In this document: piece by piece, positions 182-5,527 of the stretch
How positions within the stretch are numbered: position 1 is the stretch's first letter
Layout of the letters: every line of letters begins with the position of its first letter
Virus genome (UHGV): UHGV-0268347
Strand: one strand, 5' to 3'
Length of the DNA: 27,718 bases
DNA from: a virus
Translations under genes and position numbers: made by a program
The notes under the pieces: generated by a model
What the model was told of the DNA's origin: nothing
The model's database searches: none
Seen by the model: the letters and a program-made list of their open reading frames with translations, nothing else

Positions 182-420
182 GAACTTGCTGGCCTAAGAA
201 GAATGCGCGCTGATTTTGAAGATAAAATCAGCGTTACAACGCCCGAAAGACCCGGGCTAAAAAATTTCTCAGGACATTATCGGCAGGTGACACTCTGGTG
301 GTCTGGAAACTGGATCGACTGAGGCGCAGTATGCGGCATCTTGTCGTGCTGGTGGAGGAACTGCGCGAAAGAGGCATCAACTTTTGCAATCTGACGGATT
401 CAATTGATACACAGTATCTT
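182..420 (+). pseudogene. Serine recombinase (Pin/Gin/Hin-type DNA invertase) remnant, N- and C-terminally truncated with an internal frameshift
   Basis: One frame gives ...FEDKISVTTPERPGLK, the next gives KFLRTLSAGDTLVVWKLDRLRRSMRHLVVLVEELRERGINFCNLTDSIDT; together these resemble residues about 30-95 of Pin-family invertases. The frame switches near the A-run at 255-262. The catalytic-serine N-terminus is absent and the sequence diverges after SIDT. Confidence 0.6.
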
Positions 421-1971: not shown

Positions 1972-2108
1972 CTAAGAAATTTTGCACGAGAGGATTTTAA
2001 CCTCCTCCCCGACAGACATGACAGTGCCCAAATGTCTTAAGAACGTATGTACTTGAAATGGACATTGCTAATACCACTGGGTATTGATTAATTTGGGGCT
2101 GGTAAGCA

Positions 2109-2378
2109 TTACAAACCAATAATCTGGAATAGCGCGGTTGCTGCTGCAGACAATGCTGCAAATGAATTGTACTTAGATTGAAGCCGCGCAGTGGCGAAGA
2201 AATCATGGAGATTCACGTTAAGTTCGGGATCTTCATACGTAACCATGACAATTTTTTTGCCTAACTCAACTTTTGCTGTAGCAGATTTAATCCATAAAAT
2301 TGCAGATAAGACGCCAAAAGTTAATGACATCACATGATGATCTTTAATCCAACACATCACAAAAAGTAGATTTTCCAT
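2109..2378 (-). CDS. Hypothetical small hydrophobic protein (89 aa)
   Basis: ORF with a strong RBS (aggaaggtga) 4 nt upstream of ATG on the minus strand; no family recognised; could be a gene fragment. Confidence 0.25.
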   Translation of the reverse strand: MENLLFVMCWIKDHHVMSLTFGVLSAILWIKSATAKVELGKKIVMVTYEDPELNVNLHDFFATARLQSKYNSFAALSAAATALFQIIGL

Positions 2379-2521
2379 TAATCACCTTCCTGATAAAGAA
2401 CAGTGGCATTACAAATAAACAAGAAATCTCCTGTCGCAGGTACCTTGTCAATTTAACACCCACATCAATAAAGGCTGTTGTTCCGTTTGTGGCAGCTGAT
2501 GTATAGACATTTTTGCAGATG

Positions 2522-2548
2522 AAACGAAAAAGCCCGCAGATGCGGGCT
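2522..2548 (-). terminator. Rho-independent terminator (minus strand)
   Basis: Stem agcccgca/tgcgggct with 2-nt loop at 2531-2548, followed on the minus strand by a T-run (plus-strand gaaacgaaaaa). Confidence 0.6.
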
Positions 2549-2678
2549 TTCATGTCACTTGGGAGCCGCGGCTCCTTTGCGTATCCTTTTTTGTATCCTC
2601 ACCGTCTGGTCGGTGTCCTGCTGAGACTGCTAACTTCCTGTTTTTATTGGTGTTGTCCTTACACCGTCCAATCATGAT

Positions 2679-2723
2679 TGGTGGAGCTGGCGGGAGTTGA
2701 ACCCGCGTCCGAAATTCCTACAT
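2679..2723 (-). other. ssrA: Prophage attachment-site core: 45-nt duplicate of the 3' end of tmRNA gene ssrA
   Basis: Reverse complement reads ATGTAGGAATTTCGGACGCGGGTTCAACTCCCGCCAGCTCCACCA, identical to the ssrA 3' end as I recall it; the match stops abruptly at 2724, so this is a partial att copy, not the gene. Confidence 0.8.
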
Positions 2724-2808
2724 ACCATTTTCACTATAGCAAAAACATTAACTTGCGTTTAAAATCAGCAAGTTAGTATTATCTTGTGTTTGTCCGTTTT
2801 ACTCATTT

Positions 2809-3855
2809 TTAATGCTCTGTCGCCAATCTGTCGCCATTGTAGGTCAACGAAGGTTGAGCCTTCCCTTTGTTTGTTACAATTTCATCAAAGATAGCTGGAT
2901 TATTATCTTTCAGTAATCTTGCTAGTATAATGATTTGCCCAGACGAGCCATCATCCTTGAATGAAAGGAAATTATCGGTAATATCAAGAATATCAATGGT
3001 AAATTTGAAGTAGGTTTCAATTGTATCGCCAAGTTCAATGCTGGACATGAAGTTAGTAATCATTTCATATCCATCAAAGTATAAAGTTGCATGTTCATTT
3101 AACTCCATGGGAGTTAGGCAAAGCATTCGATTAAGTTCGGATAAGTGTTTTTCTATTGAATGAAGAGATTGCATTTGACGGATTAAAACTTCGTCAAACT
3201 GAGAGCCACGATTAGATGAATTTATCTTCTCTAGGTTTTTTAGTATATCAACCCAGTGATTATTTACTTCACGTATGTATTCTTTATCTGTATTTTTAGG
3301 CCGTCCCTTCTCTGGTGAGCTATTTATGAAAATATATCTATATAGATGTATTGGGTAGTTAATTTTATAACTTATCTCTTTAGTACCATAATGACGTTCG
3401 CGTTTAATGGTTTTGTTAGGTAAATTGGTGAAATAATCAGTAACGAACTTTAGATGGCTATAGTAGCTATCAGATAGATTCTTTTGCTTGGTTTCCTCAA
3501 TTTGTCGGTTTGTTTGAACTGTGCGGTGTATGTTTGCTACGACAGCAACAAATGGTATGGACAAAGAAAGTAAGGCGATAGGAAGCTTGCTAATTGCAAT
3601 GAAATTATTAAAGCCCTCACTATCAAATTGAGGGGAATGTCCAAGCCAGGAAAATATACCAAAGTATATCGCTGAAAATACAGGAATCCTAAGTGATTGT
3701 TTAAATAAGTATTGACTTGTTAATGGCCTTTCATCCATGTTAAAGCCTTTTTTTGATACGCATAGATATAATTCAAGGCATATATATATAAAATATATTA
3801 TGATAAGTAAGTACGATATCCATGGGTATTGTTGGATATAGTTATTAACAAGCAC
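2809..3855 (-). CDS. Hypothetical multi-pass membrane protein (348 aa), AT-rich integrase-adjacent moron
   Basis: ORF between int and att; N-terminus has about three hydrophobic helices (WISYLLIIIYFIYICLELYL, IPVFSAIYFGIFSWLG, LPIALLSLSIPFVAVVANI), then a roughly 230-aa soluble domain; visibly AT-rich. GTG start at 3855 overlaps the int stop, preceded by GGAG; the next in-frame Met is residue 40. Confidence 0.55.
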   Translation of the reverse strand: MLVNNYIQQYPWISYLLIIIYFIYICLELYLCVSKKGFNMDERPLTSQYLFKQSLRIPVFSAIYFGIFSWLGHSPQFDSEGFNNFIAISKLPIALLSLSIPFVAVVANIHRTVQTNRQIEETKQKNLSDSYYSHLKFVTDYFTNLPNKTIKRERHYGTKEISYKINYPIHLYRYIFINSSPEKGRPKNTDKEYIREVNNHWVDILKNLEKINSSNRGSQFDEVLIRQMQSLHSIEKHLSELNRMLCLTPMELNEHATLYFDGYEMITNFMSSIELGDTIETYFKFTIDILDITDNFLSFKDDGSSGQIIILARLLKDNNPAIFDEIVTNKGKAQPSLTYNGDRLATEH

Positions 3856-4885
3856 TTTCTAATTTTCTCCATCCAAGGTTAGCAAGAGGATTTTTGGTTA
3901 CAGCATCTTCCAGATGGTCGGGAGCGAAGTGGGCGTAAATCATTGTCATTTTTATATCGACATGGCCCAGAATATCGCGCAGCACCAGTATGTTTCCGCC
4001 ATTCATCATAAAGTGACTTGCAAATGTATGTCGTAATACGTGTGTGCATTGCCCTTCTGGTAGCTCGATACCAGCTCGTTTAACCGCACGTTCAAAAGCT
4101 TTCCTACAAGGTGTAAATAATTTTCCCCTATTCTTAGGCAGTTCTTCATATAAATCCTTTGAAATAGGCACTGTTCGGTTTTTCTTTCCTTTAGTCTTGG
4201 TATAAGTGATACGGTATTTTGATACCTGATGACTCTGTAAGTTTTCGGCTTCGCTCCAGCGTGCGCCGGTGGCCAAGCATATTTTTGCAATCATCAGCAG
4301 ACTGGGGCTTTGAGAATCAGCACAGGCATCCAGCAGACGTTTAATTTCTTCCGGGGTCAGGAACGCCAATTCACCCTCAGCAATTTTAAATGTTGGCAGC
4401 CCAGCAAGCGGGTTGGGGGCTGACCAGTGGCCCAGCTTTTTCAGTGTACCAAAAACAGATGATAGGTTGCGCTGTTCAAGATTTACCGTGCGGGGCTTAA
4501 CGGGCGACATAAGCGTGCCATCTTCATTTCGTACTTCACCTTTTAACCGTGCTTCGCGGTATTTCGTAAACTCACCAGCTGTCAGTTCTGAGGCGATGGG
4601 ATCGCCTAGACCATTACAGATAATTCTAAGTTTCGCCATGAGGCGCTTGGGGTCTGCGAGTGTTTGACCATACAGGGAATACCACAGCTCAATTAATTCT
4701 GATAGATGTCGCCGATCTTCCTTTTCCCCTAGCCATGGTTTTTTGTTCACTTCTTCCATTGTGAAGCTTTCAAACGCAATGGCTTCGCCTTTGGTAGCAA
4801 ATTGCTTACGCACGCGCTTACCATTGCGTCCATTGGGATAGCACTCACACAACCATTTTCCGTTCGGCTGTTTTCTGATGGTCAT
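3845..4885 (-). CDS. int: Tyrosine integrase (P2/186-type)
   Basis: 346 aa; C-terminal catalytic region with HVLRHTFASHF and MIYAHF (R..H-x-x-R..Y pattern); positioned next to att and the repressor as in P2/186. Confidence 0.93.
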   Translation of the reverse strand: MTIRKQPNGKWLCECYPNGRNGKRVRKQFATKGEAIAFESFTMEEVNKKPWLGEKEDRRHLSELIELWYSLYGQTLADPKRLMAKLRIICNGLGDPIASELTAGEFTKYREARLKGEVRNEDGTLMSPVKPRTVNLEQRNLSSVFGTLKKLGHWSAPNPLAGLPTFKIAEGELAFLTPEEIKRLLDACADSQSPSLLMIAKICLATGARWSEAENLQSHQVSKYRITYTKTKGKKNRTVPISKDLYEELPKNRGKLFTPCRKAFERAVKRAGIELPEGQCTHVLRHTFASHFMMNGGNILVLRDILGHVDIKMTMIYAHFAPDHLEDAVTKNPLANLGWRKLESAC

Positions 4886-4888
4886 AAG

Positions 4889-5527
4889 TTAGAGGTTCTT
4901 GATTACTTTGACTGCACGTCCTACGACTTCCACATCATCTACAGAACATTCAAATGAAGTGTCATCTTGGTTAACTACTATTTTGTTTCCGGGTATGCGC
5001 GCAATTTTGACGATGCTTTTAACTCCGTCCATATCGACTAACCAGAAGCCATTACTGACTTGTTTAACAGACGTATCCACTACAAAGCTATCATTAGCTG
5101 TTTTAACAAATAAAGCGTTGGATGAGTCACCATCGAGCAGGCTGCTATCAAGAAGAATTTCATCACTTGGCTGCAGTTCGCCGTTCTTCAGTTCAACACG
5201 TTTGATGCTAGGAGCAACGATCTTAGAAAGTGGTCTTACAGTGACGGAAGGTTCATTTTTGAGATTTATTTCTTCGTTCTCACACGCATACATATCTCCT
5301 TGACCAGTAGCCAGCCATAGAAGGGAAGCTCCTGTTTCAAGGGCACATTGGATTACCCATTCGGCAGGAAAGCTATCCCTTAAGTATCTGTTAGCCATAG
5401 TGCTTTTTGATACTTCCAGATGTTCGCAGAGCTGCTGTCGTGAGCTGAAGTTGTAAGCCTTAATAAGCCTATTAATCGCATCGCGCCCACCACTATCATT
5501 CCCCGCCTTGATTAAACTCATAATCAA
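4889..5527 (-). CDS. cI: CI-type lysogeny repressor
   Basis: 212 aa, divergent or convergent with the apl-cII operon and immediately upstream of int; N-terminal region resembles the phage CI-repressor HTH domain (186-like). Confidence 0.75.
   Translation of the reverse strand: MIMSLIKAGNDSGGRDAINRLIKAYNFSSRQQLCEHLEVSKSTMANRYLRDSFPAEWVIQCALETGASLLWLATGQGDMYACENEEINLKNEPSVTVRPLSKIVAPSIKRVELKNGELQPSDEILLDSSLLDGDSSNALFVKTANDSFVVDTSVKQVSNGFWLVDMDGVKSIVKIARIPGNKIVVNQDDTSFECSVDDVEVVGRAVKVIKNL

Follow-up and report, generated by a model that had tools for sequence, protein, structure and literature searches.

The interval at positions 1972 to 2680 of the UHGV virus genome UHGV-0268347 (27,718 nucleotides of one strand, hereafter the window) most probably represents, with a probability that we put near 80%, the arm nearest to the attachment site in a decayed LLS-type lambdoid prophage that had integrated into ssrA, and not a single functional locus. 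Phages of the LLS type carry, one after another, a tail-fiber invertase gene, a variable cargo slot, a copied ssrA trailer that includes the terminator, and, as attP, the 3' end of ssrA. The same order is found in the window, where an invertase pseudogene (~203-486) is followed by rnlA-rnlB and an 89-aa open reading frame (ORF89) as cargo, the trailer (2523-2678), and a copy of the ssrA 3' end (2679-2723). The invertase fragment shares 76% identity with LLS fin and 82% with K-12 pinH. In the free phage LLS (PQ299149), with the order tail fiber, Fin invertase, cargo, trailer, attP, and int, a stretch of 191 bp at the annotated attP and "tmRNA pseudogene" is 90.6% identical to window positions 2527-2717. 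Integration of LLS into ssrA was deduced by its authors, whose paper gives a 29-bp identity to ssrA only and does not describe the homology of the trailer (PMC12315714). In JJ1886, a complete lambdoid prophage is bounded on each side by the ssrA 3' end plus trailer, as direct repeats that are 90.9% alike, and intact ssrA adjoins the repeat that has ORF89 and rnlAB next to it.

The original prediction had treated the interval as one orphan locus with a small ORF and two hairpins. Judged by where homology begins and ends, it is instead a mosaic, left by the traffic of phages through the tmRNA gene: in most E. coli genomes, homology to the interval is confined to 2523-2680, ORF89 cassettes elsewhere match the window only across ~2060-2461, and the GC content steps from 39% in the neighboring DNA to 50% at the trailer boundary. 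The two hairpins are not part of ORF89; they belong to a distinct upstream element that is far more widespread, the non-coding ssrA 3' trailer and terminator (~156 nt, minus strand, 2523-2678), which is conserved next to ssrA or its fragments. The mobile ORF89 cassette (~400 bp, minus strand, 2060-2461) is delimited by homology to copies with unrelated flanks. Two spacers without strand assignment, likewise set by the homology limits, make up the remainder, one of 88 bp from the rnlB stop codon to the cassette end (1972-2059) and one of 61 bp from the terminator to the cassette (2462-2522). Both are specific to the lineage; in the collections searched, the second is common only to E. coli genomes with the rnlAB-ORF89 block, which is present whole and at least 99% identical in 74 E. 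coli genomes. The first contains a weak hairpin at ~1992-2012 (minus-strand fold of 1972-2030, −16.2 kcal/mol, z = −2.1). Two 69-aa ORFs (1997-2206 and 2344-2553) matched no family, and the exact arrangement of the window was found in none of the complete E. coli genomes of the collection. The earlier statement that the interval holds no recognizable gene is partly wrong: ORF89 is RefSeq protein WP_000429347.1, and positions 2679-2680 already form part of the ssrA 3' end copy.

That copy (45 nt, minus strand, 2679-2723) is 100% identical to the 3' end of K-12 ssrA, with its CCA at 2681-2679, and comparison against Table 1 of PMC10107115 identifies it as the wild-type sequence, with T357 present. 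It is a fragment and not a gene: the Rfam tmRNA model (RF00023) gave a partial match truncated at its 5' end (45 bits against a gathering score of 47, E = 1.8e-16, model positions 333-374), and neither ARAGORN nor Rfam at the gathering score found a full tmRNA or a tRNA in the window. The fragment forms a putative att repeat and adjoins a P2-like prophage that starts at 2724, with the int and CI genes of the latter in the window and intact ssrA beyond the window end. The same interval directly adjoins intact ssrA in AHM8C212RI and JJ1886, where ssrA ends at the position equivalent to the 2679-2723 copy, and CFSAN051542 shows the order trailer, ssrA fragment, hypothetical gene, int, CI, P2-like genes, ogr, intact ssrA, and smpB. 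Read against these strains, the P2-like prophage inserted at 2679-2723 is probably what parts the trailer from ssrA here, by more than 25 kb.

A predicted intrinsic terminator hairpin is found at 2529-2550 on the minus strand. Its 9-bp stem, aaagcccgc/gcgggcttt (2529-2537 with 2542-2550), contains six G-C pairs and closes a 4-nt loop (2538-2541), slightly longer than the hairpin first noticed at 2531-2548. Folding as minus-strand RNA gives −18.3 kcal/mol (z = −5.2), a value matched by none of 200 shuffled sequences. A U-run at 2521-2531, reading UUUUUCGUUUC, follows the hairpin directly on the minus strand, while the plus-strand side offers three T only, and the hairpin is therefore a candidate minus-strand terminator, a G+C-rich stem-loop with an immediate U-run on the transcribed strand. 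A compensatory change from G-C to A-U occurs in the stem in 15 of 75 sequences. The hairpin was not listed by a consensus terminator scanner, and its assignment rests on fold and sequence. The second palindrome had been placed at about 2562-2575, and exactly these positions hold the perfect 14-nt palindrome GGAGCCGCGGCTCC / ggagccgcggctcc (minus strand). With a 5-bp stem, −10 kcal/mol, and a z score of about −2, ggagccgcggctcc alone is marginally better than chance; the helix is kept across the 75 relatives, with compensatory C-G to U-A changes in 6 and G-C to G-U changes in 17. The terminator, orphaned in the window, follows int and the 348-aa gene of the P2-like prophage in the same orientation, and it most likely now serves only to stop read-through from these genes.

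Trailers that are 91 to 94% identical adjoin ssrA or ssrA 3' fragments in ~4,100 of 5,426 E. coli genomes, and the trailer was aligned with those of K-12 attR, JJ1886, CFSAN051542, and the phages LLS and Ayreon. Five helices are conserved (2668-2681, 2649-2665, 2593-2627, 2600-2615, and 2562-2575, the fifth being the palindrome). Across 75 distinct trailer sequences, pairing is retained in 96.9% of cells, compared with 35 to 47% in slid controls, and compensatory changes were found in six base pairs. Homology among the 75 loci, as in the K-12 attR alignment, stops within a few bases past the U-run. The central 60 to 80 nt are near-invariant in sequence as well as in structure, which speaks for the trailer acting as DNA, namely, as the P' arm of an attP with integrase arm-domain, IHF, or excisionase sites conserved for recombination. 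Its location within the attP region of LLS would fit such a role, as would phage Ayreon, where the central block is kept near the integrase gene without an ssrA piece, and two of the helices are perfect palindromes, as is often the case in dimer binding sites. However, the same trailer is found beside ssrA fragments from elements whose integrases are unrelated (P4-type CP4-57, P2-type, and lambdoid) and is also present on the host side of many other islands. The pairing likewise points to RNA, in that helix 2 shows three pair types, the terminator covaries, and the more than 60 G-U cells in the alignment, which would be A-C mismatches on the other strand, fit pairing of the ssrA-sense strand only; the element also always ends in a terminator. 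We therefore regard a purely DNA-level function as unlikely, although DNA and RNA functions could coexist.

As an RNA, the trailer is most simply read as the tail of the pre-tmRNA transcript rather than as an independent sRNA gene. The original prediction had suggested an sRNA locus, and what is present is indeed a conserved, structured, non-coding element of ~156 nt that ends at an intrinsic terminator and has been retained where it is parted from ssrA; the 41-aa ORF inside it is not conserved and is interrupted in most relatives. These features would suit a regulatory sRNA, either cut from the pre-tmRNA tail or transcribed by itself. Against this, an Rfam scan of the interval returned no family at threshold for the trailer, the only candidates for a known sRNA being weak matches to isrK (17.5 bits) and STnc350 (21.9 bits) far below their gathering scores, a promoter scan found no promoter-like site, and the conservation is equally accounted for by processing and termination of pre-tmRNA. 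An sRNA thus appears quite improbable, and the pre-tmRNA tail is preferred. We infer that the trailer copy in the window was borne by a phage; a host origin would also be compatible with the trailers on the host side of other islands.

The 89-aa ORF was correctly described as a hydrophobic minus-strand reading frame with a ribosome-binding site. It occupies 2109-2378 with an ATG start, and a Shine-Dalgarno-like sequence, AGGAAGGTGA at 2382-2391 in the minus sense, ends ~4 nt before the ATG and is kept in homologs. RefSeq labels the product a hypothetical protein. Lack of conservation had been named as grounds for dismissing it, and a homology search gave the opposite result: residues 1-88 match positions 1-89 of the 90-position PHROG profile phrog_14357 at E = 4e-33, a significant match over the full length that places the protein in PHROG 14357. 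Clustering at 50% gave 33 family representatives; 27 of these were placed in an alignment with the window protein, and each of the 28 sequences matched the profile. Homologs that are 69 to 94% identical have the same length, and the length of 89 aa is kept across genera that include E. coli and Pantoea, and on a Pseudomonas plasmid; distant relatives of 75 to 113 aa have the motifs G..SA.LW..SA and QSKWNS.AA in common. The ratio dN/dS was 0.06 to 0.11 in five comparisons, at dS of 0.25 to 0.5, and 0.32 in one pair.

It was also proposed that the ORF is a gene remnant, and an ORF that arose by chance or is left over from a larger gene would be consistent with its short length, its failure to match any Pfam or NCBIfam family, the similar-sized ORFs that overlap it, and several frameshifted or truncated database entries (P0003, P0016, and P0020). 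The profile match, the constant length, and the dN/dS values effectively refute this, the shared motifs and the conserved ribosome-binding site also count against it, and it has next to no likelihood. On this comparative evidence, ORF89 is a real gene under purifying selection, predicted to encode a two-helix hydrophobic protein, and the earlier suggestion of a small membrane peptide at an island boundary agrees with both the product and the site. The protein has a GRAVY of +0.56, hydrophobic segments at residues ~14-35 and 70-89, a polar middle third, and a hydrophobic, uncharged C terminus, and an AlphaFold2 model (pLDDT 72.5) places helices at 2-47 and 55-87. Searches for a function gave little: a single weak and implausible "oxidoreductase" match in PADLOC (E = 0.0035), nothing credible in a PDB sequence profile search, nothing below E = 0.5 in Foldseek against viral structures, no match by tblastn in deposited phage genomes, and no homolog of known function among those found. 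The ORF is interrupted in three or four E. coli genomes and is therefore dispensable.

The cassette (a conserved leader, the ribosome-binding site, the ORF, and a short 3' tail) has a low GC content of 38% and is 84 to 90% identical at the nucleotide level to copies in Enterobacter hormaechei, Pseudescherichia, Kalamiella, Erwinia papayae, and a Pseudomonas silvicola megaplasmid. Copies with unrelated flanks occur in six other genomes; the profile locus search was built on the alignment of close relatives. Relative to other copies, that in the window is ~50 bp shorter upstream and has no downstream hairpin, a feature present in only some copies. The fold of the conserved leader is not significant in the window copy (z = −0.96) and reaches significance only in distant copies. 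The contexts differ in every genus, with no conserved gene partner; a 148-aa neighbor in Pantoea prophages was considered as a partner and set aside, being not generally adjacent. In two prophages, the ORF89 homolog is a lone opposite-strand gene flanked by the lysis cassette and the small terminase gene. Linkage to rnlAB was found in 72 of the 74 near-clonal (at least 99% identical) E. coli genomes that carry the block; DNA matching the window rnlAB was not found at the homologous loci of other genera, and the block had no near match in phages, while plasmids yielded the ORF89 cassette alone, in one Pseudomonas megaplasmid.

Type I toxins are very small hydrophobic peptides, usually under 60 aa, with an overlapping or adjacent antisense RNA. 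The small hydrophobic product of ORF89, together with a conserved leader that can form a hairpin in distant copies, might suggest a membrane toxin of this kind, its position next to the lysis cassette in two prophages a holin or antiholin, and its place beside rnlB and its linkage to rnlAB in the E. coli block a third RnlAB component. As a type I toxin, it would be unusually long and have a polar middle third, and no antisense RNA gene, family, or promoter was found by Rfam or the promoter scan. A holin or antiholin would be expected neither on the opposite strand outside the holin-endolysin-spanin run nor with an uncharged hydrophobic C terminus, and no holin Pfam family was matched. As for RnlAB, outside E. 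coli the gene is never found with rnlAB, and the link is confined to the near-clonal block. We consider it very unlikely that ORF89 belongs to any of these classes.

The history of the interval was rebuilt from other strains, because intact ssrA and the far end of the lambdoid prophage are both absent from the window. A phage of the LLS type would, on integrating, have replaced the host ssrA 3' end, trailer, and terminator with its own copy. The pre-tmRNA would then have kept a native-like structured tail and stopped at the same terminator, and cargo placed behind the trailer would have been insulated from the very strong ssrA promoter. Later, a P2-like phage probably entered ssrA at that 3' end, which moved the trailer over 25 kb away from the gene, and an IS3 element appears to have removed the rest of the lambdoid prophage, which is intact in JJ1886. 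ORF89 may be transcribed from a weak promoter of its own (GCGACA, 18 nt, TGTAAT), although a consensus promoter scan upstream found nothing, and would be translated from the conserved ribosome-binding site into a two-helix inner-membrane protein. A benefit to the lysogen, such as membrane-level exclusion of superinfecting phage, is our best guess at its role and is made by analogy with stand-alone prophage morons.

The interval should accordingly be annotated neither as an orphan nor as an sRNA locus. Its history appears to include two or more phage integrations at ssrA, one after the other, and a single deletion by IS3. The tmRNA should remain intact if the P2-like prophage is lost, because the leftover ssrA fragment has the wild-type sequence; excision of CP4-57 in K-12, in contrast, deletes U357 and inactivates tmRNA (PMC10107115). 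As one modest lead, enterobacterial ssrA has a conserved structured 3' trailer that lacks an Rfam family and of which at least one free phage carries a copy; the pre-tmRNA of K-12 cannot reveal this trailer, since its tail is a different and shorter one that comes from CP4-57. A second modest lead is PHROG 14357, a small family of predicted membrane proteins that has been transferred widely and lacks an assigned function. More speculatively, the trailer may be a functional RNA throughout the Enterobacteriaceae, either a determinant of pre-tmRNA processing and stability or a 3'-end sRNA, that phages copied into attP so that lysogeny leaves it undisturbed, and ORF89, separately, may be a membrane protein for phage exclusion or defense that ssrA read-through drives in some strains; as a whole we hold this unlikely. 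The locus is composed of known kinds of element, and the structured trailer without an Rfam family is its sole mildly new point.

Phage morons, in the Hendrix-type definition, are independently transcribed extra genes between conserved phage genes. ORF89 resembles them in its lone opposite-strand placement between such genes, in being a 400-bp unit that moves between variable contexts, and in its low GC content, whereas a promoter and terminator of its own are putative and the window copy lacks the downstream hairpin. In Streptococcus pyogenes M1UK, speA is driven by read-through from ssrA into a prophage (PMC9951164). In strains where the interval abuts ssrA (AHM8C212RI and JJ1886), ORF89 follows the ssrA terminator at ~300 bp in the same orientation, and read-through could drive it as it does speA, although the speA case concerns a different organism and phage; in the window itself this does not apply, since ssrA is more than 25 kb away. 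The CP4-57 locus of K-12, with the order psaA, trailer, ypjA, and pinH, corresponds to the ssrA fragment, trailer, ORF89-rnlBA, and invertase remnant of the window, but the cargo differs and the ssrA fragment has 14 nt and lacks T357 (PMC10107115), compared with 45 nt of wild-type sequence here. The interval also closely resembles the arm of Escherichia phage LLS, with which the window shares gene order, trailer and att identity, and the invertase fragment. The cargo of LLS is gp25-30, compared with rnlAB and ORF89 in the window, and the window retains a remnant of ~2.5 kb that was truncated by IS3 and displaced from ssrA by a second prophage. Such an arrangement recalls the "Traffic at the tmRNA gene" of Williams (2003), in which successive integrations at the ssrA 3' end reportedly leave gene fragments and push older material outward.

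The interval between rnlB and att (approximately 1972 to 2680) is, judged from sequence comparison, a mosaic. At least 80% of it was found in 66 complete Escherichia coli genomes, and in the two of these that were inspected, AHM8C212RI and JJ1886, it directly adjoins an intact ssrA. Approximately 4,100 of 5,426 E. coli genomes matched query positions 552 to 709 only (window 2523 to 2680), at 90 to 95% identity, and another set of sequences matched approximately 2060 to 2461 alone, a cassette holding the 89-amino-acid open reading frame (ORF89). The remaining 88 and 61 bp were common only to the E. coli lineage carrying the whole block (74 genomes, identity of 99% or more). The GC content is 39% in the cassette and spacers and 50% in the segment at 2523 to 2678 on the minus strand, which is a 3' trailer of ssrA. 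The interval had originally been predicted to be an orphan locus; we consider it roughly 80% probable that it combines a displaced, phage-borne ssrA tail and its terminator with an independent moron. It is ordinary traffic at a tmRNA gene.

Both of the hairpins that the original prediction placed in the interval are present. The one at 2531 to 2548 makes up the inner part of a 9-bp stem (2529 to 2537 paired with 2542 to 2550), and its fold in minus-strand RNA has an energy of −18.3 kcal/mol (z = −5.2). On the minus strand it is followed by UUUUUCGUUUC, whereas the plus strand offers three T residues only. The hairpin would therefore terminate transcripts that enter from the att side, and it lies upstream rather than downstream of ORF89. 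The palindrome GGAGCCGCGGCTCC is at 2562 to 2575. A 17-mer from the center of the trailer was used as an IMG/VR query, which recovered at least 120 stretches; removal of duplicates and spurious matches left 72 distinct trailer sequences including that of the window, and these were aligned with those of the free ssrA-integrating lambdoid phage LLS, the distal copy in JJ1886, and K-12. All 75 end at the terminator and begin either at the CCA end of ssrA or with an ssrA fragment whose length varies; past the terminator, the loci diverge into many unrelated flanks. Across five helices and the terminator, 96.9% of the cells in the 75 sequences pair, compared to 35 to 47% when the partners are slid by 1 to 3 columns. 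Compensatory double changes occur in six pairs of the structure; one position in helix 2 shows three pair types (U-A, A-U, and C-G), the palindrome helix has a C-G to U-A change, and the terminator stem has a G-C to A-U change. The invariance of helix 4 is by construction, because it falls in the 17-mer search pattern. Both hairpins thus belong to the ssrA transcription unit, as portions of a single element, its structured and conserved tail, and not to an ORF89 locus.

The main rival explanation is that the trailer acts at the DNA level as an attP arm, as its contexts in the phages LLS and Ayreon and its near-invariant center would suggest. Against this role stand the presence of the trailer beside unrelated integrases, the covariation in the helices, and the G-U pattern: more than 60 cells are G-U, and on the other strand these would read A-C, which favors pairing of the ssrA-sense transcript over pairing of DNA or of an antisense RNA. 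The trailer could, with low probability, also be a 3'-derived small RNA. A 41-amino-acid ORF within it is broken in most of the aligned sequences, and no Rfam family covers it. Found at loci L023 to L142 as well as in the window, the trailer adjoins tmRNA genes of 363 and of 364 nucleotides and so is probably present in more than one genus. This conserved structured trailer is the single point that is perhaps worth a short follow-up.

The 89-amino-acid ORF itself (WP_000429347.1) was correctly described: it occupies 2109 to 2378 on the minus strand, its predicted strong ribosome binding site, AGGAAGGTGA at 2382 to 2391, is kept in its relatives, and its product is hydrophobic (GRAVY of +0.56), with hydrophobic stretches at residues ~14 to 35 and 70 to 89. 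The homology search suggested for the product gave a full-length match to PHROG 14357 (E value of 4e-33), to which all 28 aligned sequences, including that of the window, were assigned. No family was found in Pfam or NCBIfam, PADLOC gave no credible match, and a fold search returned nothing informative. Close homologs, 69 to 94% identical and all of 89 or 90 amino acids, occur in Erwinia, Pantoea, Enterobacter, Pseudescherichia, Kalamiella, Atlantibacter, and a Pseudomonas megaplasmid. An exhaustive profile search yielded 33 representatives at 50% clustering, most of 75 to 113 amino acids, with common motifs in the first (G..SA.LW..SA) and second (QSKWNS.AA..AA) helices; the AlphaFold2 model has two long helices, 2 to 47 and 55 to 87 (pLDDT of 72.5). 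The dN/dS ratio was 0.06 to 0.11 against five copies, at dS of 0.25 to 0.5, with a sixth copy giving 0.32; for the comparison with distant prophage copies, dN was 0.12 to 0.16 and synonymous sites were saturated. On sequence grounds ORF89 is a new member of an uncharacterized phage family, and our guess is that it is a membrane protein benefiting the lysogen, perhaps by exclusion.

Two prophages have a solitary ORF89 homolog that separates the small terminase gene from the lysis cassette and lies on the opposite strand, and in Erwinia one lies in a chromosomal variable region; the flanks of other copies are unrelated. This varied placement indicates a stand-alone moron cassette of approximately 400 bp, whose link to rnlAB is confined to a single near-clonal block of E. 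coli. The rnlAB-ORF89 match is broken within ORF89, at approximately 2218, in three or four E. coli genomes (H135 to H138), which suggests an insertion or deletion there and therefore that ORF89 is dispensable. The window cassette lacks ~50 bp of upstream sequence and a downstream hairpin found in other copies. Its leader (approximately 2395 to 2445, minus strand; CTCGCGACAGGAGATTTCTTGTTTGT), which includes GCGACA, 18 nucleotides, and TGTAAT, is conserved more than the first codons; a consensus promoter scan of it called no promoter. The leader folds into a strong hairpin in distant prophage copies (L005 and L008 5925 to 6020; z = −2.2 and −3.2), whereas the hairpin in the window copy is not significant. 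Where the arm adjoins ssrA, ORF89 could be driven by transcripts that read through the terminator, by analogy with Streptococcus pyogenes, in which read-through from ssrA drives speA (PMC9951164). Such read-through cannot apply in the window itself.

To the left of the interval are an IS3 end, a serine-invertase pseudogene fragment, rnlA, and rnlB. The mechanical ORF of rnlA spans 435 to 1616, starting at 435, and a RefSeq homolog of the RnlA-family toxin is 1,071 nucleotides long, equivalent to a start at 546. To the right are a 348-amino-acid ORF and the tyrosine integrase (3845 to 4885) and CI-like repressor (4889 to 5527) of a P2-like prophage, both on the minus strand. The 348-amino-acid ORF (2809 to 3855, minus strand), located between att and the integrase, matches phrog_17460 (E value of 1e-156), has a hydrophobic N-terminal region and a GC content of 34%, and gave a weak PADLOC match to "2TM effector" (E value of 2e-4); it may be a cargo or defense gene. 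The window contains no complete tmRNA or tRNA gene, and positions 2679 to 2723 are identical to the last 45 nucleotides of E. coli ssrA. In CFSAN051542, the junction matching 2523 to 3100 belongs to a P2-like prophage, a degraded relative of that of the window, whose far end is an intact ssrA adjoining smpB. Because CFSAN051542 shows the same junction and the full arrangement, we infer that a P2-like prophage integrated in ssrA makes up 2724 to 27718 and that 2679 to 2723 is its distal att repeat; its intact-ssrA end should fall beyond the window. The P2-like prophage and the ORF89 block occurred together in no complete genome of the collection searched.

We hypothesize that rnlAB and ORF89 arrived at ssrA with an integrating phage of the LLS type, that the restored ssrA 3' end then took up a P2-like phage, which pushed the arm away, and that IS3, before or after this second integration, deleted the remainder of the lambdoid prophage. 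In AHM8C212RI, IS3 adjoins the same invertase fragment as in the window. The ssrA fragment of the window is wild type (CGCCAGCTCCACCA) and keeps T357, and so excision of the P2-like prophage should restore a functional ssrA; the fragments of K-12 (psaA) and CFSAN051542 lack T357, and excision of CP4-57 deletes U357 and inactivates tmRNA (PMC10107115).

In JJ1886, a complete lambdoid prophage of ~46 kb is bounded on one side by the intact ssrA and on the other by a second ssrA-trailer copy in direct orientation (34 nucleotides of ssrA plus the trailer; 90.9% identical). The order is ssrA, trailer, ORF89, rnlB, rnlA, invertase remnant, tail-fiber assembly, and tail fiber, followed by the rest of the phage, the integrase, two cargo genes, the ssrA fragment, the second trailer, and glaH. 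The two genes between integrase and distal ssrA fragment (L020 43354 to 46066) encode an AAA-family ATPase and a DNA adenine methylase, and this gap gives the prophage type a further cargo slot. The Campbell model predicts that the copy next to intact ssrA comes from the phage, and the window trailer is thus most probably the phage's own; we infer this origin with the caveat that trailers also lie on the host side of other islands.

At its annotated "tmRNA pseudogene" and attP, phage LLS has a 191-bp stretch with 90.6% identity to window 2527 to 2717, and its own order is tail fibers, Fin invertase, cargo genes, trailer, attP, and integrase. Its integration into the ssrA 3' end was deduced by its authors from a 29-bp identity (PMC12315714). 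Related pieces are also present in phages phiNP, Ayreon, and PhiR12. In K-12, the trailer lies at the far end of CP4-57, between the 14-nucleotide ssrA fragment psaA and the end of ypjA, and homology to the window ends straight after the U-run. Directly behind ssrA, CP4-57 supplies a different, shorter tail with its own terminator, and this is the tail of the K-12 pre-tmRNA, because the trailer is confined to the far end of the element. The invertase fragment of the window (252 to 384; compared with L004 6656 to 6789 and L021 1407 to 1535) shares 82% identity with pinH of K-12 and 76% with fin of LLS, which gives pinH, ypjA, trailer, and psaA of K-12 the same layout; K-12 thus seems to have a prophage arm of this kind, in which ypjA occupies the cargo slot.
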